Notes under the pieces: model-generated
The model's database searches: none
Seen by the model: only the letters and a program-made list of their open reading frames with translations
What the model was told of the DNA's origin: nothing
IMG/VR virus record: IMGVR_UViG_3300049782_000062
Location: 1 to 27,471 of that record
Length of the DNA: 27,471 nucleotides
Origin: a virus
Taxonomy: Duplodnaviria; Caudoviricetes
Strand: one strand, 5' to 3'
Part shown: in pieces, positions 4,721-27,471 of the stretch
Position numbering within the stretch: position 1 is the first letter of the stretch
Layout of the letters: every line of letters begins with the position of its first letter
Translations under genes and position numbers: made by a program

Positions 4721-7700
4721 ATGGCATCGCAGTGGAACCTGTCCGTACGGCTCACCGGCCAAGGACAAAACCTTTCCCGCACCCTGCGCGAAACCAGCCG
4801 TGACGCCCGCCGAGCCTCCCGCGACATCGACACCCTGCGCCAGGACATCAACCGTCTGCGTGCCGCAGTCGGCAGAGACATCCGTATCGGTGTCCGCCTC
4901 GATGCCACCAACCTGCGCCGCGACGTCCAGGCCGCCATCAACGGAGCCGGACCCCGGCAGGGCATCCGCGTGCGCATCGGTGTGGACGCCACCAACCTGC
5001 GCAGAGACGTGCGTGTCGCACTCACCGGAGCCGGCCCCCAGCAGGGCATCCGGGTCCGTTTCGATGTTGACGCCGCTCACCTCCGCGACGACATCCAGGC
5101 CGCGATCACCGCCGCAGGCAGAGGACAAGGCCTCGGCATCCAGCTGAACCTGACCGACACCATGCAGCTGCGCCGCGACGTCGCAGACGCTGTGCGCTGG
5201 GCCGCCTGGGGTCACCGCATCGACATCCCCATCGGCCTGCGCAACCCCGACCAACTGCGTCGCGACGTCGACGAAGCCGTCCGGCAGGCCCAGCTCAACC
5301 AGGTCATCCGCGTCCGGGTCGACACCGACACCGCGGCGCTGCGCAACCTCGGCCGCACCCTGAACACCGGCGGAGGAGGTTCAGGCGGCTCCAGGGGGCT
5401 CCAGAACGCGCTCAAGGCGCTGCTGTTCCTGCTGCCCGCAGTCATCCCGCTCGCCGGCGGGCTCGGAGCGAACATCGCCCCGCTGGCCGGGCAGTTCGCC
5501 GCCAGCGGAGCCGCAGCCACCGTCTTTGGTGCCGCCATCGCCGGCCAGGTCACCAACCTCACCGAGGCGGTCGAGGCGCAGAAAAAGTATGAGGATGCTG
5601 TCGCTCAGCACGGCGAGGCGTCTGAGGAGGCAGCGACGGCCTCCGACGAATACCAAGTGGCCCTCAGCAAGCTCCCGGCGGCTACCCGCGAGACCGCGGC
5701 CGCCCTCGCCGACCTGAAGGACGACTACCAGGACTGGTCCGACGCGCTCGCCAGTGACACCATGCCGGTCGCCACGAAGAGCCTCCAGCTCCTCGACGCG
5801 CTGCTGCCCCACCTCACCCCCTTCGTGGAGGGCGCCGCCAACGCGTTCGAACGGCTCGTCACCTACGCCGGCGGCCGCATGAACACCGGCCAGTTCGAGA
5901 ACCTCATGGAGACGTTCTCCGAGAACTCCACCGACAGCCTGAACGAACTCGTCACCGACATCATCCGCTTCGCCGAATCCGTGGACGAGTTCACCGGCGG
6001 TGAGGACGTTCAGGCCTTCCTCGCCTTCTGCCGGGAGAACGGTCCGCTCGCCGCGGAGACCCTGGGGAACATCGGAAGCGCCCTCGTCCATCTGCTGGCG
6101 GGGGCGTCCGGGAGCGGGGAGATCCTCCTCACCGTTGCTAACGCCCTCGCCAAGGTCGTCAGCGCGGTGCCCGCCGAGGCGATCTCCGTCTTCCTCCAGT
6201 TCTACACGGCCATGCGTCTGGCCAGCATGGCCGCGGCCGGCCTGACAGCCGTCACCGGATCCGCAGCCGCCACCAGCCTCGCCACATTCGTGCGCTCCGC
6301 ACGGTTCGGCGGTGTCGGCAACGCTGTCGCGGGCGTCACCCAGCAGATGAGCGGACTCCAGAAAGTCGCGGGCGGGCTCGGCATCCTCGGCGCGGTCGCT
6401 ATCGCCATCGACGAGATCGCCGAGCGCGCAAAGGGCGCCCCACCGGACGTCGACAAGCTCACCACGTCCTTGAAGGAACTGGCGGCCACTGGCGAGTTCT
6501 CAGGCGAGCTGGAGAGCACGTTCGGTGACATCGACGGGTTCGTCTCCAAGATGAACAGGCTCGAGGGCACCGAGAAAGTCCTGGACAAGGTCCTGAACCC
6601 TCGCGGCAAGGCGGCGCTGGAGCCCATCCTGGACGGGGTCATCTCGAAGATTGATCCCCTCGTCAACGGCAGTGACGGGCTCGAAGCCATGAAGGACGAC
6701 TTCGAGTCGCTGGACAAGGCATTCGCACAGCTTGCCACCAGCGGTCACGGCGACCTGGCCGCCGAGCAGTTCGCGAAGTTCGAGCAGGCCGCTCTCGACG
6801 CTGGGCACTCCCAGTCCGAAATCAACAAGCTTTTCCCTGAGTACCAGAAGGCCGTCGCCGCCATCGACGCGGAGCAGAAGGTAGCCGCGCGCTCGATGGG
6901 CCTGTTCGGTGAGGCCGCTCTCGAGACCCAGGCCAAGCTCGACGCGCAGAAGAAGAGCACGGACGGCCTGCGCGCCAGCATCCAGGCATTGAACGAGGTC
7001 AACCGGGCGGCCGGCAGCGCGATGAACGCCATGGAGCAGGCCATCGACGATGCCGCCGACGCCGCCAAGGAAAGCGCCGGCGCGCTCACGATGAGTAATG
7101 GCCAGCTGGACCTGAACAGCCAGAAGGCCCGGGACGCGGAGAGCTCACTGAGCGACCTGGCCGCAAGCACGGACGAAGCCGTCACCGCAGCCCGGGAACA
7201 GGGCAAGTCCTGGGAACACGTCACCGGCATCTACGAGCGGGGCCGCAAAGCGTTCGTAGACACTGCCATGCAGATGGGCCTGACGAAGACGCAGGCTGAA
7301 TCGCTGGCCGACGCGTACCTGAGCATCCCGGACAAGGCGTCCACCAAGGTGGAGATGCAGACCGCTGACGCCATCGCTGGTCTGGAAGCGGTCATCGCCG
7401 CCATCAAGAAGACCCCGGACAAGAAGAGCGTCAAAGTCGACGCTCTCTCGAAGAGCGCGATCGACGAACTGGAAGCTTTGGGATTCAAGGTCAAGCGCTT
7501 GCCCGACGGCCGGTTCGAGGTCATCGCCAACACCGCGACGGCACAGGGCCGACTAGGAGACGTGCAGGCCGCCCGGGACCGACTCAAGGGCAAGGAAATC
7601 TCTATCGACGCCGATCCCAGCGGATTCTGGGCGAGCGTGACAGGTCTGGTCGGCAGAGTCCTCGGCACCTCATACATCAACGTGGCCTACCGGAAGACGG

Positions 7701-9097: not shown

Positions 9098-9980
9098 GGA
9101 CTGGCAGTACGACATCGGAGGCGTCGTCATCGGCGCCGGCACCAGCGTGGACGTCATCGAGACCACCGGCCTCGGCCGGCCCCCGGTCCGCGACTCGGAT
9201 GTGGACCAGCCGTCCATGGACGGCCAGTTCGCCGGCCCCGACTACTGGGCGGGCCGCCAGGTGCAGATCGACGCCGCCATCAAGATCCCCGGGAACCCGG
9301 CGGCCTGCCACGACATGGTCGCCGCCTTGCAGGCCGCCACCGACCCCGCTGCTGTCCGCCTGGTCGGCGGGCAGGGCCTGACCCTGCGGATCAAGCGGCC
9401 CGGCCGACCGGTGAAGAGGCTCACCGTGCGGGCCCGCAAGCTCGATCCGGAGTACGAGCAGGTCATCCACGGCTACGTGCCGCTCGACCTGGAGTTCCTT
9501 GCGCACGACCCCACGTTCTACGCCGACACCGAATCCGTCACCGAGCTGCCGCTGGGATGGCTCACCGGCGGGGGGTTCGCCGCACCCGTCACCGCGCCGA
9601 TCTACGTGCAGGACGGCACCGTCGCCGCCGACCGGCCCGGCTGGGTCACCAACAACGGTGACGCGGACGCCTGGCCCATCATCCGCATCACCGGCCCCTG
9701 CGCCAACGTCACCATCACCCACGTCGCCTCCGGAAGGCAGCTGGCGCTTCCCACCCTGAACCTCGCGGCGGGCCGCTGGATCGAGATCGACACCCGGCCC
9801 GGCTACCGCACCGTCACCTGGGACAACGGCGGCAACGCCTCCACATACCTCAGCCCCGCATCCCGCATCGACCTGTTCTCCCTCCCGCCTGGCCAGTCCG
9901 AGATGCGCTGGACCGCGTTCGACAACACCCAGACCGCCCGCATGCGCGTCACATGGCGCGACGCCTACATCGCCCTCTGA
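9087..9980 (+). CDS. Distal tail protein (Dit-like)
   Basis: GTG start 9087 after GGAGG; AHDPTFY, VTNNGDADAWPIIRITGP and LPPG motifs typical of actinophage Dit; follows TMP. Confidence 0.8.
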   Translation: MPLEDWQYDIGGVVIGAGTSVDVIETTGLGRPPVRDSDVDQPSMDGQFAGPDYWAGRQVQIDAAIKIPGNPAACHDMVAALQAATDPAAVRLVGGQGLTLRIKRPGRPVKRLTVRARKLDPEYEQVIHGYVPLDLEFLAHDPTFYADTESVTELPLGWLTGGGFAAPVTAPIYVQDGTVAADRPGWVTNNGDADAWPIIRITGPCANVTITHVASGRQLALPTLNLAAGRWIEIDTRPGYRTVTWDNGGNASTYLSPASRIDLFSLPPGQSEMRWTAFDNTQTARMRVTWRDAYIAL

Positions 9981-20176: not shown

Positions 20177-20449
20177 GTGGCCAAGGCCCGAGTGAAGGTC
20201 AAGTTCAACCAGGCGGCGCTGAAGAAGGCCGTCGTAAAGTCGGTAGACGACTGGGCTGCGAAGATGACCCGCAAGATCAACGCCCTGTCGCCGCAGTACA
20301 CCGGGCGTCCGGTGCCGGAGGTGAAGCAGGCGATTGCACGGGTGTGGGCACGTGAGGCGGACGGCACGAAGTTGCCTGAGCCGCATCTGACGGCGTACGC
20401 GGAGCAGATCGCGGCTGGTGGTCGGGTGACCATCAGGACGAAGAAGTAG
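20177..20449 (+). CDS. Small basic hypothetical protein
   Basis: 90 aa, GTG start after GGGGAGG RBS, ends at hairpin. Confidence 0.7.
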   Translation: MAKARVKVKFNQAALKKAVVKSVDDWAAKMTRKINALSPQYTGRPVPEVKQAIARVWAREADGTKLPEPHLTAYAEQIAAGGRVTIRTKK

Positions 20450-20459
20450 GGTACGCACG

Positions 20460-20496
20460 ACGGTGCCCCGGCTGCTTTCCTCAGCCGGGGCACCGT
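20460..20496. terminator. Bidirectional intrinsic terminator-like hairpin
   Basis: 15-bp perfect stem ACGGTGCCCCGGCTG / CAGCCGGGGCACCGT with 7-nt loop between convergent genes. Confidence 0.8.
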
Positions 20497-20516
20497 GGCG
20501 TTCGACGTCGGTGTCC

Positions 20517-20678
20517 TCACTTCTCGGCGGCGCGCTCGGCGGGGGACTGTCCAACGCCCGCGCAGGGCGGGGAGGGCTTGAAGCCGTTGGCCTGCTTCTC
20601 TAGGTGGAGAGGCAGTGTGCCGTTGTCAGTGAGGGTGTACGGGCGGTGGCAGGCGGGGCAGGTTCCAACCGCTGTCAT
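20517..20678 (-). CDS. Array gene 4: 53-aa putative metal-binding protein (CPAC...H...C), ends EK
   Basis: Starts at repeat ATG, stops in next repeat TGA. Confidence 0.75.
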   Translation of the reverse strand: MTAVGTCPACHRPYTLTDNGTLPLHLEKQANGFKPSPPCAGVGQSPAERAAEK

Positions 20679-20689
20679 GGTCGGCGTCC

Positions 20690-20839
20690 TCACTTCTCGG
20701 TGGCGCGGTCGGTAGACAGCCCGAGCCTGTGAAACAGGGCGTCCAGACCGTCCTCCACGGTGCTCGTGGCTCGCTGCACTTCGTCCAGTTCGGGGTGGTC
20801 GGCTTTCCAGTCGAGGTAGTCGGAGAGCCAGTCGCTCAT
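20690..20839 (-). CDS. Array gene 3: 49-aa acidic protein, ends EK
   Basis: MSDWLSDYLDW...RATEK; bounded by repeats. Confidence 0.75.
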   Translation of the reverse strand: MSDWLSDYLDWKADHPELDEVQRATSTVEDGLDALFHRLGLSTDRATEK

Positions 20840-20850
20840 GGTCGGTGTCC

Positions 20851-21228
20851 TCACTTCTCGGTTTCGGGTGTCGTGGGGCGGCGCGTCTGCCACCCCTTCT
20901 GTCCGCCGGTCGGAGTCCGGACAGCGCGCGATACAGCACCAGCCCGTCGGCGAACGAACCGCTCCTCGTACTCCTCCCGCTCCCGGTGCTCTCGATCCTC
21001 CTCATCCTCGACCTGGAGGAAGGCCGGGTAGGCGTCTCGTGCGGCGGCGACAGCAGCGAGCGCGGTGTCGTGCAAGGAGTCCTCAAGTCGGTTGTGGGAC
21101 CAGGTGAGGTGCCACCCGGCGTCGGTCTCTGCGATCTTGGCGATTCGCTCGTGGTGGTCGTGGTGGCGAATGGTCATGGCACGGCCGTCCCACGGAGTGA
21201 AGATGGGTACGGGCTTCGGGCGGGCCAT
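20851..21228 (-). CDS. Array gene 2: 125-aa hypothetical protein, ends EK
   Basis: MARPKPVP...PETEK; bounded by repeats. Confidence 0.75.
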   Translation of the reverse strand: MARPKPVPIFTPWDGRAMTIRHHDHHERIAKIAETDAGWHLTWSHNRLEDSLHDTALAAVAAARDAYPAFLQVEDEEDREHREREEYEERFVRRRAGAVSRAVRTPTGGQKGWQTRRPTTPETEK

Positions 21229-21239
21229 GGTCGGTGTCC

Positions 21240-21656
21240 TCACTTCTCCACGTTGCGGATGGCGGTCTCGAAAACAGGGATCAGGTCTTCGGCGATCTCG
21301 TACCCTTCGACCTTGCCGAAGCCGGGCCCCACACCGGTCACCGGCTGCTTCATCGCCTCGGGCCAGCGGCGCAGCGTCTTGCCGCGCTGGAGGATGCGAC
21401 TCAGGGGGGCGCTGTGGCCGCGCAGGCTGTCATCGGGGTTGTCGCGGAGGGCATCCGCCGGCACCATCCCGCCGCGAGCCACCGCCTCCTTGACGATTCG
21501 TCGGGCGCGGGCGGGCAGCATCCGGTAGTACTGGGTGGCGCGTTCCTCGGTCCAGGTCGTGTCGGTCTCGACGTCCTGAGCGTGGTCGGCGAGGAGGGCC
21601 AGGAGCTTGTCCTGGAACTCGGGCGTGGGCTCATCCACGGTGACGGTGATACGCAT
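21240..21656 (-). CDS. Array gene 1: 138-aa hypothetical (possible DNA-binding) protein, ends EK
   Basis: MRITVTVDE start with GGAAGG RBS; stop lies in first repeat. Confidence 0.75.
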   Translation of the reverse strand: MRITVTVDEPTPEFQDKLLALLADHAQDVETDTTWTEERATQYYRMLPARARRIVKEAVARGGMVPADALRDNPDDSLRGHSAPLSRILQRGKTLRRWPEAMKQPVTGVGPGFGKVEGYEIAEDLIPVFETAIRNVEK

Positions 21657-21659
21657 GAC

Positions 21660-21790
21660 ACCTTCCGTAGCAACTAACGAGATCTGACGTGTTCTTACGA
21701 GAACCGTAGCGGACTCACGCACGTCTGTTACTCGTTTACTCGCATTAGTTTCACGATAGTTGGCGCGCGATCCTCACTGAGGAGCGCCCA
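21660..21790. promoter_or_regulatory. AT-richer divergent promoter/operator region
   Basis: Intergenic between divergent genes; imperfect IR 21671-21682/21751-21762, TTACTCG x2, CCGTAGC x2, palindrome TCCTCA-C-TGAGGA 21771-21783. Confidence 0.55.
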
Positions 21791-21842
21791 GCGTGGTTCC
21801 CGATAAGCTCATATGCCAGGCCACAAGAGCTACGGAGACCCA

Positions 21843-22010
21843 TTGAGCCTCGCCGGATACATCGTCAGCGTGCTGGCCGTCCTCGTCTCGCTCGCCAGCA
21901 TCACCGTGTCTCGGTCCGCACGGAAGCACGCTCTGCGCGCGCAGGCCGCGTATGCACGGGCCGAGGCTACGCGTGATGCGAGGCGGAAGATGAGGAACCA
22001 GACCCTCTGA
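21843..22010 (+). CDS. Small single-TM protein
   Basis: TTG start after GGAG (alternative ATG 21813); hydrophobic N-terminus, basic C-tail. Confidence 0.5.
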   Translation: MSLAGYIVSVLAVLVSLASITVSRSARKHALRAQAAYARAEATRDARRKMRNQTL

Positions 22011-22051
22011 CTCCAGTTAATGTTCCATCAGTCGACCTATGGAGCGTCGTC

Positions 22052-22261
22052 ATGGACCAGCCGGATGAACATACGCTCGTTGCGCAGGTCGACGCAGCGA
22101 TTGAGGCGCGCTGGCAGGTAGCGCAGCGCCGGCACCGGGATGCTATGGCCGCAATCGAGCGTCGTCGGTGCCGCGCCAACCTCCGCTTCGGCCTCGTGCT
22201 GATCGGGTGCGCCGCCGCGGCCGGCCTGGCGGCTCTGGTGTCTTCCTGGCTCGGTGGGTGA
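22052..22261 (+). CDS. Small protein with C-terminal TM helix
   Basis: 69 aa, GGAG RBS. Confidence 0.55.
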   Translation: MDQPDEHTLVAQVDAAIEARWQVAQRRHRDAMAAIERRRCRANLRFGLVLIGCAAAAGLAALVSSWLGG

Positions 22262-22326
22262 GGGTCCGACGCCACGGCTGGCGCGACACCCCCTGATCTG
22301 CTCTCCGAGGGATCACGGAGCCCCAT

Positions 22327-22354
22327 GTACTAGATAATTACTGTTATGTTGATC
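22327..22354 (+). other. dif-like (Xer-type) recombination site
   Basis: GTACTAGATAA-TTACTG-TTATGTTGATC: 11-6-11 layout with ATAA/TTAT inner symmetry and TTATGTT XerD-type arm; strongly AT-rich island in intergenic DNA. Confidence 0.65.
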
Positions 22355-22394
22355 TCCCGCACGGGCGGGGGATTAACGGCGATCCGGAGGGCCC

Positions 22395-22814
22395 ATGAAG
22401 GACTTGGTGCAGTTTCTACGTGACCGGCTGGACGAGGACGAATCGATCGCGCGGGAGGCGGCGCACTACGAGGCTGGGCACTGGACAACGAAGGACGGGT
22501 ACCCCGTCTCGGTGGCGGACGAGTTGCCGGAGGCAGCGGATACCTTTGAACGGGTGGTGGTCTTCGACGAGGGATCGCCCAGTGAGGAGCAGGCTGCCCA
22601 TATCGCCCGCCACGACCCGGCCCGCGTTCTCGCCGAGGTGGCCGCTAAGAAGCGGATCCTGGACCTCTACGACGCAGCACACTCCGATGCGGTCCGCGAC
22701 GCCATCGGTATCGACTCGCAGGATGGCACCATCAGCGCCATAACAGCGGCTCTCCAGTACCTCGCCACTGTGTACGCCGACCACCCGGACTACAACGAGG
22801 CGTGGCGGCCGTGA
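22395..22814 (+). CDS. DUF6221-like protein
   Basis: DLVQFLRDRLDEDE...HIARHDPARVLAEVAAK...YADHPDYNEAWRP pattern; GGAGG RBS. Confidence 0.8.
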   Translation: MKDLVQFLRDRLDEDESIAREAAHYEAGHWTTKDGYPVSVADELPEAADTFERVVVFDEGSPSEEQAAHIARHDPARVLAEVAAKKRILDLYDAAHSDAVRDAIGIDSQDGTISAITAALQYLATVYADHPDYNEAWRP

Positions 22815-23884
22815 CCGAGCTCGTCCCAAGAGCGCGCGGCGGCCAACTCGCCGCGCGCACCCGCAGCGCCGTCGACGACTGGCCACCCGAAGCCCTCGAC
22901 TTCGCCACCGAACTCGCCGACCACTACCCAGCAGGCGACCCCTACCCCGGCCTCGTCGGCGCCTGGATCGCACGCCAGAAGACCGCCAACACCCGACGCA
23001 CCTACGTCCGCCAGTACCGGGTATGGGACACCTACGCCCGCGAGAGAGGCACCCACCCGCTCCAAGCCCGCTTCCCCCTCGCCGAGGCATTCTCCCGGCA
23101 CCTTGAGACCGCCCCCACCATGCGACCGGTCAAGGGAGGGCACCGCGGGGAGAAGGCGCCCACCGGGCCGCCCCGCTCCGACGCCGCCCGGGCGAACCTG
23201 CTGTCCGCCTGCTCCTCCTTCTACACCTACGCCGTCCGCGCCGGCGCCGCCGAGTTCGACCCCTTCGACCTCGTCGCCCGCCCCGAGCTCGACCAGGACG
23301 GTTCCAACACCCAGGGCAGCACCGAAGAAGAGTCCGCGGCGCTCCTGGCGGCCGCCTACGAAGACGGGCCCCGCTCCTACGCCCTCCTGCTCACCATGTA
23401 CACCGTCGCGCTACGCCTGGACTCCGCGCTCGGCGCCCAGGTCGAGGACCTCGGCCACGACAAGGGCCACCGCATCCTCAACGTCCGCCTCAAGGGCGGC
23501 CGCCGCAAACCCAAGGTCGTCCCCCCGGCCACCGGGCACGCCATCGACGTCTACCTCAACGGCCGCACAGCCGGCCCGCTGTTCCAGACCCGCACCGGGC
23601 GCCCCCTCGACCCGGCCTACGTGTGGCGGCTCGTACGGCGCCTCGCCAAGAAGGCCGGCATCGCCAACGCCGCCACCTTCCACCCGCACGTTCTCAAGCA
23701 CGACGCCGTCACCCATGCCCTGGACGCCCCGGACGCTAAGCTGCACCACGTCCAGGACTTCGCCGACCACAAGGACCCGCGGACCACCCGCCGCTACGAC
23801 CGGCGCCGCGGGCGCCTGGACAACAGCCCCGGCTACCGCATCGCCGCACGGATCGCCGAGCGCCTGCCCGGAGGCGACGAGTAG
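22811..23884 (+). CDS. Tyrosine recombinase/integrase (XerC/D-like)
   Basis: GTGA overlap; N-terminal core-binding domain (NTRRTY...LSACSSFY), ALRLDS (Arg I), LKGG, HPHVLKH, DHKDPRTTRRY (His/Tyr). Confidence 0.9.
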   Translation: MTELVPRARGGQLAARTRSAVDDWPPEALDFATELADHYPAGDPYPGLVGAWIARQKTANTRRTYVRQYRVWDTYARERGTHPLQARFPLAEAFSRHLETAPTMRPVKGGHRGEKAPTGPPRSDAARANLLSACSSFYTYAVRAGAAEFDPFDLVARPELDQDGSNTQGSTEEESAALLAAAYEDGPRSYALLLTMYTVALRLDSALGAQVEDLGHDKGHRILNVRLKGGRRKPKVVPPATGHAIDVYLNGRTAGPLFQTRTGRPLDPAYVWRLVRRLAKKAGIANAATFHPHVLKHDAVTHALDAPDAKLHHVQDFADHKDPRTTRRYDRRRGRLDNSPGYRIAARIAERLPGGDE

Positions 23885-24862: not shown

Positions 24863-25711
24863 TCAGCCGCCGGCGGGCACGTCCCAGTAGCCGGTGTGTG
24901 CGATGGTGTCGGCGGTGACGGGGGGTGTGCGCTGGGCGAGGGTGGGTTCGGTGGCGATCATCTGCCGGATGAGCATGTTGGGGTAGCGGGAGATGATGGG
25001 GCGGCCGCCCTGGCCGAGGATGAGGGCGTGGACGCCTTCGGCCGGCCGGGGCCGTTTGGGCAGGTACCGCTTGAGTGCGGCGGCGGTGAGCGGTTCGAGG
25101 GTGAACTTCTTGCCGACGTTTTCGAAGTCGTCGGGGGCGCGGACTTCGTAGGTGCCGTTGGGGAGTTCGTAGAGGTGGCGCATGTCGAGGCGGACGATTT
25201 CGCCGGGGCGCAGGCCTTCGAGGAGGAGGTAGCCGATGAGGCGGTCGCGGAGGTAGTGGCGGGCCTGGTCGGGGCCCCAGCCGCCGAGGCAGGTGAAGAA
25301 GGCGACGCGTTCCATGGGGGTGAGGCGGCGGGGCGGGTTGGCGTCGCGGTCGACTCCGCTGCGGAGCATGGTGAGGTCTGGGGGGAGGCGGATGGCGCCG
25401 CGGTCGGCGGCCGCGGTGTAGAAGCCGGTGAGGGCGGTGATGCGCCGGTCGTGGGATTTGGCGACCTCGGGGTGCTGTTCGGCGAGCTGCGCGAGGGCGT
25501 CGGGGCTGTCGAAGGGCCGGGTGAGGTAGGGGTGGAGGAAGGTCTGCTCGGACCAGGCGGCGATGTCCTCGATGCCGGCCGCGTAGGGGTTGATGTGGTG
25601 GTGGGTGCACCAGTCGAGCCAGGAGGTGACCTCACGCCGGTACTCGGCGGCGCTGGAGGGGCGCAGGGTGGAGTGGGTGAGCCAGTCCTCGAGGAGCGTG
25701 CGTGGGTCCAT
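24863..25711 (-). CDS. Degenerate tyrosine recombinase-family protein lacking HxxR and catalytic Tyr
   Basis: Core-binding domain (LRPSSAAEYRRE...RRITALTGFY), RDRL...GLRPGEIVRLD, then TADTIAHT where TPHxLRHT is expected and stop 9 aa later; alternative start 25735. Confidence 0.8.
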   Translation of the reverse strand: MDPRTLLEDWLTHSTLRPSSAAEYRREVTSWLDWCTHHHINPYAAGIEDIAAWSEQTFLHPYLTRPFDSPDALAQLAEQHPEVAKSHDRRITALTGFYTAAADRGAIRLPPDLTMLRSGVDRDANPPRRLTPMERVAFFTCLGGWGPDQARHYLRDRLIGYLLLEGLRPGEIVRLDMRHLYELPNGTYEVRAPDDFENVGKKFTLEPLTAAALKRYLPKRPRPAEGVHALILGQGGRPIISRYPNMLIRQMIATEPTLAQRTPPVTADTIAHTGYWDVPAGG

Positions 25712-25749
25712 GCCCCTTATCTTGCCCGCTCTCATTCCTAGATCAAGAT

Positions 25750-26838: not shown

Positions 26839-27180
26839 TCAGTCGTCGTCACGCGGCTGCTCGGGCCGACGCTTTCGACAGGCATCCCGGTTTGAGCACA
26901 CCGTGATCTCGATGCCGTACTTCTCGCTGGTGAGCGTGCGGAAGCCGCGCTTGCCGATGCGGCCGCACTGCTCGCAGTACCGGGCATGAACGTCGCGCGA
27001 CTTGCTTCCCTCGGCGGGGCCCACGTAGCCGCGCTGTTGGAGCTCGTTGAGGAGGGCGTCGGCGTCACGAAAGGAAATCCGCATCCAACGCTGTAGAGCT
27101 GATGTGGCGGCGAGGCGGCGGGAGGCGACCAGGCGTAGGGCTCGGTCGATCTGTTCGGGAGCGAGTGTCGTGCCGGTCAT
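26839..27180 (-). CDS. Stand-alone FtsK gamma (winged-helix) domain fused to CxxC zinc finger
   Basis: ATSALQRWMRISFRDADALLNELQQRGYVGPAEGSKSRDV matches the FtsK-gamma pattern; then CEQC...CSNRDAC; GAGG RBS. Confidence 0.85.
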   Translation of the reverse strand: MTGTTLAPEQIDRALRLVASRRLAATSALQRWMRISFRDADALLNELQQRGYVGPAEGSKSRDVHARYCEQCGRIGKRGFRTLTSEKYGIEITVCSNRDACRKRRPEQPRDDD

Positions 27181-27190
27181 CTGGTTCCTC

Positions 27191-27471
27191 TCAGGCGGCG
27201 AGTGCGGTGGACGAGCGGGTGATGCGCGGGCGGTTGGGGAGGTAGTCGCGGCCGAGTTCGCGGGCGATGAGCTGCTGTTCGCTGCGGACCACGATGCCGC
27301 GTCCGGCGGGGGTGGTTGCCTCGGGCCGCTGCAGGACGAAGGCCATGCGGTGGACGGTGTAGGAGCGGATGCGGTCGATGTAGAAGGAGCGGGCGTCGCC
27401 GCGGAGGCGGCACATGGCGCGGACCTGGATGCGGCCGGCCTTGGTGGTGCGGATCTCGTACGCCTCGATGG
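27191..27471 (-). CDS. WYL-domain protein (5' end outside window)
   Basis: Frame open to window edge: IEAYEIRTTKAGRIQVRAMCRLRGDARSFYIDRIRSY matches WYL C-x-x-R...R-x-F-x-x-D-R-I. Confidence 0.8.
   Translation of the reverse strand, partial: IEAYEIRTTKAGRIQVRAMCRLRGDARSFYIDRIRSYTVHRMAFVLQRPEATTPAGRGIVVRSEQQLIARELGRDYLPNRPRITRSSTALAA

Follow-up and report, generated by a model that had tools for sequence, protein, structure and literature searches.

The window analyzed here, i.e., the whole 27,471-nt (27.5 kb) IMG/VR record, carries on its minus strand a compact array of four small open reading frames (138, 125, 49, and 53 aa), all of which end in E-K and are joined by copies of one short repeat. 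The array opens with a 138-aa leader gene (21240..21656, family F4), identified as an ORF with homologues, followed by cassette genes of 125 aa (20851..21228), 49 aa (20690..20839), and 53 aa (20517..20678, family F5). It closes at a hairpin with a 15-bp stem and a 7-nt loop (20460-20496; fold z = −6.2) located between convergent genes. A 19-nt core of the repeat was found at 21230-21248, 20841-20859, 20680-20698 (one mismatch), and 20507-20525 on the minus strand, while 100 dinucleotide shuffles of the sequence yielded no core match at ≤3 mismatches. Extended to the full linker described below, the copies span 21226..21263 (copy 1, in which the 3′ end of the leader itself forms the left arm), 20837..20874 (copy 2, with 23 nt of perfect identity to copy 1), 20676..20713 (copy 3, nearest to the family consensus), and 20503..20540 (the terminal copy 4), and the core start-to-start spacings are 389, 161, and 173. 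After trimming of the tails, all six pairs of array proteins scored no better than shuffles (p 0.39-0.92), so the four genes are not paralogues. An earlier, sequence-only reading of this DNA had listed the four core positions, four mutually unrelated E-K-ended genes, and the closing 15-bp hairpin, all of which held. It had also described every junction as stop, ribosome-binding site (RBS), spacer, and ATG (…CC ATG); this is true of three of the four, but copy 4 keeps the RBS and spacer, lacks a start codon, and runs into the hairpin. Its repeat was real at the cores but drawn too short, at 19–24 nt against a family consensus of 38 nt.

None of the four array genes, the leader included, matched Pfam or PHROGs over cut-off in our searches. 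For the leader, the closest lead is an Atlas feature look-alike, DUF6416 (0.92; family on 65% of cluster members), and its family was the first gene in all five arrays compared, with a different successor each time. The 125-aa protein has 14 homologues, mostly with TEK-like tails; one of these, 67% identical and located in L133, has a different predecessor and a hairpin directly after it. Four matches were found for the 49-aa protein, one of them identical, with ends TEK, DEK, DEK, and TEQ. The 53-aa protein contains a CxxC motif and a weak, below-cut-off match to zf-Tbcl_FmdE (E=0.012), and is probably zinc-binding judging from these sequence features; its family follows five different predecessors across five arrays.

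Upstream of the leader, a non-coding region (21657..21760, minus strand) likely provides the sole promoter of the array. The sequence-only reading had placed one promoter region at 21660-21790; a sigma-70-type scan of 20300-22500 found no promoter, and what supports the placement is a TACGGT −10-like hexamer at 21703-21708, which by eye resembles the upstream regions of homologous leader genes in six of eight cases, the remaining two sitting behind another gene. Also by eye, an inverted-repeat pair seems to flank promoter-like hexamers in the window (21660-21760) and in L004, L062, L045, L138, L069, and L085; it is a perfect 12-bp pair in L004, varies by leader subfamily, and possibly represents an autoregulatory operator. 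At the other end, the exact array-end hairpin pattern was found at 15 viral loci, and this conserved hairpin is likely a terminator. It also occurs in six records without an upstream linker (L029, L033-L037), in which no alternative junction repeat was evident, and is thus not specific to linker arrays.

The window derives from a Streptomyces plasmid-phage of the pSLE1/pSAM1 type, with which it has a common neighborhood and close homologues. Among plasmids, the 4.6 kb around the array matched best to those of S. leeuwenhoekii (pSLE1; 86,370 bp), S. pseudovenezuelae (93,705 bp), and S. ambofaciens (pSAM1; 89,658 bp). A search of the GenBank phage collection returned dCTP deaminase matches only. 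As in the pZL12/pSLE1/pSAM1 type, the array lies between two recombinase genes with a DUF6221 gene on one side and dcd-thyX on the other, and at this very site pSAM1 and pSLE1 carry small genes wholly different from those of the window. The accessible text of the pSLE1 description (PMC4487206) reports synteny with pZL12, phage genes, ParA/B, and two putative integrases, and mentions no such repeat; the cargo differs per element. The record ends before the annealing-protein slot and the ParA/ParB region. Proteins identical to window cargo (P0001, P0015) occur on five contigs, the longest of 46,075 bp, so that a longer assembly of the element exists. Near the end of the window, an FtsK-gamma-domain gene (E=1.3e-13) lies beside an ORF resembling, by eye, the end of a WYL domain (26839-27180 and 27191-27415, minus strand), and WYL genes occupy a similar place in pSAM1 and pSLE1.

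Next, we surveyed the linker across related elements. Pattern scans yielded 28, 15, and 35 viral loci, 17 genome loci, and 36 metagenome loci, to which protein-led scans added 6. Fifteen loci were excluded before counting (6 isolated matches outside any array setting, 2 isolated sites identical to each other, and 7 duplicates); within L001-L078 each contig region is represented once, and 9 loci found later were left out as duplicates. Overall, 207 linker sites were counted across 77 related loci, with a single site in 18 loci and a maximum of 8. The 38-nt consensus encodes A-D-R-A-T-E-K, i.e., about five codons ahead of the E-K pair, and continues with a TGA overlapping GAGGA, an 8-nt C/A-rich spacer, and ATG. 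A 12-nt core is nearly invariant, although pattern-based locus finding inflates core conservation. The linker profile had no match in 808 kb of mononucleotide-shuffled loci, and the exact core 11-mer was confined to one or two arrays in all ten whole records.

One reading of these units is that they are the relic of tandem duplication of a single gene, or a network of repressor-bound stoperators. Head-to-tail units of similar size and an asymmetric, co-oriented junction repeat would fit either version. Nevertheless, the window cargo is unrelated, the wider cargo comprises 88 families, with the same family found twice in only 1 of 77 loci, and exact core 11-mers are restricted to arrays in 10 of 10 whole records. 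We consider this reading highly improbable, and largely refuted already.

We then asked which property of the linker is conserved. In a peptide-tag scenario, the C-terminal DRATEK sequence itself would be maintained for stability, targeting, or packaging, and 107 of 178 linker-following ORFs do have an EK terminus. To evaluate silent positions, we retained a single site for each independent upstream family (61 of 140) and considered codons −3 and −5, which lie outside all search patterns. Arginine at codon −3 was CGC in 28 of 31 cases (background 0.40, p 8e-9) and alanine at codon −5 was GCC in 22 of 24 (background 0.45, p 2e-6); codon −4 was uninformative. Furthermore, the linker persists untranslated behind an earlier stop at 4 of 206 sites, and 10 terminal sites without a downstream start retain the core and, in some, the spacer. 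This silent-position conservation, together with retention where the linker is non-coding, indicates that the linker is not an EK tag. The tail variants EQ, EN, EH, ET, and EE and the conservation of the non-coding spacer point the same way, making the peptide tag, which the sequence-only reading had listed as an alternative, scarcely credible.

Constraint at the DNA level could equally reflect an expression signal. Under this hypothesis, the linker would be conserved mainly for translational coupling or as an RNA- or DNA-binding factor site, similar to mycobacteriophage start-associated sequences (SAS), and swaps would accumulate there only since recombinants survive at gene boundaries. The linker does overlap the stop, RBS, and start, its 8-nt spacer is present in exact form at 82 of 192 junctions, and conservation of silent sites fits an RNA signal no less than it fits a substrate of recombination. 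Transcription is also consistent with such a role: we mapped to the pSAM1 array the reads of three raw RNA runs bearing the same species label as pSAM1-array holders, and observed the whole length of the array covered by continuous sense transcription in one direction, with sense depth dropping near the hairpin. The oppositely oriented dcd gene provided an internal strand control: its first mates mapped mainly to the plus strand, those of the array to the minus strand. However, the 10 terminal copies keep the core, and some the spacer, with no gene to start, no conserved RNA fold was detected for the linker (mean z +0.28, 136 sites), and other small-gene operons within 20 kb of pSAM1 lack such a junction repeat. 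An expression signal alone would also leave the reassorted junctions described below (177 vs 3) unexplained. We therefore regard it as an unlikely sole explanation; a role in translational control probably coexists with one in recombination.

These RNA data were also inspected for traces of rearrangement. Among 11,307 pSAM1-array RNA reads, no circle or deletion joints were found, with low power given a depth of hundreds compared to events near 1e-5, and a wider mapping of reads to this array likewise yielded no joints or indels at low power. A single joint supported by 2 reads begins outside the repeat and was left uncounted, and no variant was seen in RNA runs X20 and X8. Separately, direction-specific RNA mismatch clusters of mixed type occur at linkers of L052 (10014-10025, 10380-10390, and 10543-10565), most likely as a result of sequencing error.

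Comparison between relatives is where exchange becomes visible. Among 16,805 classified junction pairs from different loci, 90 had only the upstream gene in common and 87 only the downstream gene, while 3 shared both, the latter count depending on duplicate removal. Gene order across the first 49 arrays showed 4 direct conflicts and a cyclic order graph (a 13-family cycle), although some conflicts rest on distant homologues and two are weakened by the chimeric nature of one family involved (F2). At odds with entirely free shuffling, polarity is partly kept: 15 family pairs recur in repeated order, one family (F7) is last in 4 of 4 arrays, and preferred first and last genes exist among these 49 arrays. 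Ends of shared DNA blocks fell within the linker in 284 of 427 cases for a linker spanning 24% of array length, an enrichment confounded by the tendency of phage mosaic boundaries to lie towards gene ends regardless. Homogenization of linkers within arrays was not significant (p=0.07), and of the 10 best pairs with a common downstream gene (95-99% identical), 6 had different spacers. Based on these comparisons, the content and order of the arrays have been reassorted among relatives. The sequence-only reading had envisaged exchange of single genes, in register, at the repeat, and this part of it is supported. Among the observations it proposed to look for were varying cargo number and order in relatives and cargo that is not merely diverged paralogues; both were found, as cargo number, identity, and order all differ at the orthologous locus and the window cargo is not paralogous.

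The genes exchanged in this way form a large and mostly unannotated pool. Immediately downstream of linkers we counted 178 ORFs with a median length of 81 aa, 108 of which also terminate in a linker, and they group into 88 families, including 50 singletons, for a Chao1 estimate of ~165. Pfam matched 2 of 86 family representatives (DUF6354 and RHH_1), leaving 84 without a match, and PHROGs matched 7 of 86 (one weak tail-fibre match and six without known function), while PADLOC returned 0 of 25. These at least 88 small-protein families, organized as an expressed pool, are candidates for new phage-host functions.

Several cases bear on how genes may enter arrays. Homologues of the DUF6354 protein have the EK end in 8 of 49 cases, including the closest ones, and lack it in 41, which supports the exchange envisaged in the sequence-only reading; in contrast to this family, homologues of the window's 125- and 49-aa genes are mostly tailed. 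In L069, a 64-aa gene has kept its own stop ahead of a non-coding linker. Gain of the EK tail is the likelier direction as far as these sequences indicate. In addition, two genes are chimeras of two families, with microhomologies of 9 and 11 nt, both off the core, as the points of joining (L080 ~6003-6362, minus strand, and L052 ~9466-9712; families F2 and F29). Assembly from pieces of two array families is a possible route to new proteins.

We next evaluated which enzyme could act at the linker. A tyrosine recombinase gene (22802..23884, plus strand; PF00589, E=2.8e-15) starts ~1.15 kb from the first array gene, close to the 1.2 kb noted earlier, and an integron-like scheme would have this enzyme, possibly helped by a second one, cut the core and move cassettes site-specifically. 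The candidate helper is a degenerate tyrosine-recombinase-like ORF (24863..25735, minus strand; weak Pfam match, phrog_1 E=3.6e-6) whose protein, by eye, seems to stop short of the usual C-terminal His/Tyr catalytic region. In favor of this scheme, a PF00589 match was found in 26 of 27 records, coordinates place one at a distance of 1-3.5 kb from the main array in 19 of the 22 records that bear arrays, the 12-nt core is near-invariant (partly through search bias), and the layout runs from leader through cassettes to terminator. Yet the recombinase slot is not occupied by one enzyme. Across 19 proteins compared, it holds seven groups with 13-34% cross-group identity beneath one unchanged repeat; the window protein (Int1) is 92-95% identical to those of pSAM1 and pSLE1 and 16-30% identical to other occupants of the slot. 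Loci with such unrelated occupants include L068, L046, L075, L054, L072, and L053.

Distance and sequence structure argue against the same scheme. Three proviral records have 32-44 kb between recombinase and array, and two plasmids carry a second array at a distance of ~30 kb. One of these second arrays, a short linker array of pSLE1 (L148 34585-35985; pSLE1 47084-48484), has its own hairpin, sits directly upstream of a Ku gene, and is ~30 kb from any integrase. The degenerate protein has 54-76% homologues near many arrays, in many plasmid-type relatives, but was absent or had one weak match in all five other array-bearing records tested. The linker itself shows no dyad (best 4 of 7), its four window copies form no single-stranded DNA fold beyond shuffles on either strand (z −0.1 to +1.4), and the chimeras join off the core. 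With seven slot subfamilies and a repeat without a dyad or attC-like fold, the nearby recombinase is unlikely to act on the linker; we judged it to be context rather than the array's recombinase, and its use as proposed in the sequence-only reading is unsupported. Overall, integron-like site-specific recombination appears improbable, and the slot would instead hold a merely syntenic maintenance gene serving resolution or integration.

Annealing recombinases are the other candidates. Over cut-off, 17 of 27 records encode one, namely RecT/Bet (4), ERF (4), Rad52-like (6), or AAA_24 (3), the last of which we take as a mark of Sak4-type recombinases. These families are mutually exclusive, never two in one record, and their genes replace one another in this phage family (L139-L147); in pSLE1, an unclassified 296-aa gene lies next to the methyltransferase where pSAM1 has bet. 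Against a short-homology model, among the 22 array-bearing records only 14 have an annealing protein, with sub-cut-off matches in 2 and none in 6, and a pSAM1 Bet query found nothing in 5 records without an annealing protein.

The available homology is also short. According to the accessible text of PMC3945230, Red-beta needs a pairing segment of at least 23-27 bp and RecA one of at least 31-34 bp, with ~17% divergence tolerated. Linker pairs share a median perfect identity of 14-15 nt, or 22 nt with two mismatches, which weighs against the short-homology model; 12-14% of pairs reach 23 nt perfectly and 47% do so with ≤2 mismatches. By the values in that text, the 23 nt shared by the first two window copies come close to the minimum for Red-beta and fall short of that for RecA. 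Off-core chimeras and variable spacers fit a homology-led, position-variable crossover, and chimeras at 9–11-nt microhomologies along with interchangeable annealing proteins would favor short-homology recombination, while a crossover fixed inside the invariant 12-nt core may also be compatible with the sequence comparison.

Taken together, these results suggest that the linker is likely a plug-in joint at which short-homology recombination swaps translation-ready genes in Streptomyces plasmid-phages. We give roughly two chances in three to a variable operon built on 38-nt linkers, with short-homology crossovers made by whichever annealing recombinase is available and no dedicated integrase. 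Genes would be deleted, inserted, or swapped by short-homology crossover within the linker, catalyzed by any annealing recombinase from phage or host. Since crossover between two aligned linkers would restore stop, ribosome site, and start, all products would be translatable. Crossover between copies on the same molecule would excise a gene circle, of 389, 161, or 173 bp in the window and, judging from linker spacings, of 302, 188, 178, 173, or 193 bp in pSAM1; genes would be swapped or inserted when the crossover partner is another element or a circle. Recruitment of new genes would proceed via microhomology recombination at their ends, a likely route because the linker resembles unexceptional sequence on both sides, namely GC-rich coding DNA in its left arm and an RBS in its right arm.

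A stronger version of this model can be put forward only tentatively, and we hold it to be possible but rather doubtful: the linker would be a purpose-built, recombinase-agnostic analogue of an integron, selected for evolvability, with single-gene circles shed by induced plasmid-phages and taken up by co-resident elements, and foreign genes becoming cassettes by gaining the linker. If so, these elements would draw on a common repertoire of small proteins, numbering >150 (88 families observed; Chao1 ~165) and mostly uncharacterized, whose role would probably be in host takeover or counter-defence.

It has long been asked how phages swap whole small genes without disrupting expression. In PeSLs, the most thoroughly worked example, every repeat needs a promoter, whereas here a short, half-coding linker appears to suffice within one operon, and exchange appears independent of the element's integrase or annealing protein. 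The linker can be directly tested in strains with pSAM1 or pSLE1, and amounts to a seamless joint of natural origin for assembling several genes in Streptomyces. In the mostly openly accessible literature outside the pZL12 and pCQ3 primary papers and supplements, we found no description of this repeat. Besides the plasmid-phages above, the closest known systems are as follows.

In the accessible text of PMC2839356 (see also PMC4122927), PeSLs are mobile regulatory cassettes of T4-type phages: small orphan genes are flanked by a repeat whose end provides the Shine-Dalgarno sequence and start codon, and related phages lose or exchange genes through recombination between copies of it, with mini-circles detected by inverse PCR at about 1 per 1e5 virions for one species. 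The linker likewise places a Shine-Dalgarno and start end at points of gene insertion or deletion between relatives. However, each PeSL has its own promoter and stem-loop, and the linker has neither: at 38 nt, GC-rich, and half protein-coding, it leaves no room for −35/−10 elements, the sigma-70-type scan was negative, and the sole hairpin stands at the end of one operon with one promoter region. The host here is a temperate Streptomyces plasmid-phage rather than a T4-type phage, and circles documented for PeSLs are predicted here.

SAS and their extended versions (ESAS), reported from Cluster K mycobacteriophages (accessible text of PMC3203893) and Microbacterium cluster EF phages (accessible text of PMC7302621), are asymmetric, over-conserved ribosome-site sequences at many genes of actinobacteriophages, and over-conservation at the ribosome site before starts is found in the linker as well. 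As described there, SAS are 13 bp, genome-wide, and interpreted as translation signals, with ESAS adding inverted repeats. Unlike these, the linker spans the upstream coding end and stop, persists without a start, and shows neither dispersal nor inverted repeats, the exact core being restricted to arrays in 10 of 10 records and the dyad absent. For Rad52-like relaxed recombination, the enzyme class and the mismatch-tolerant 23-27 bp scale given in the accessible text of PMC3945230 fit the linker, but that system uses chance homologies in E. coli phages, as opposed to one standard linker around dozens of genes.

The layout of the array resembles that of an integron, i.e., promoterless single-gene units behind one promoter, in a variable array drawing on a large cargo pool; sense transcription of the pSAM1 array is continuous, and the promoter position is a putative one. 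Integrons consist of IntI, attI, and attC, the latter an imperfect palindrome forming a single-stranded DNA hairpin with a GTTRRRY core. By contrast, the linker consensus contains no GTT, its best dyad is 4 of 7, its four window copies form no such fold, and comparison at the PF00589 level reveals seven groups of recombinases instead of a single conserved and constantly linked integrase. Its junctions are also translationally seamless and its crossovers not limited to one point. Overall, while lacking defining features of PeSLs, integrons, and SAS alike, the linker system is a variant of repeat-mediated modular shuffling that works in the manner of PeSLs and is laid out in the manner of an integron.
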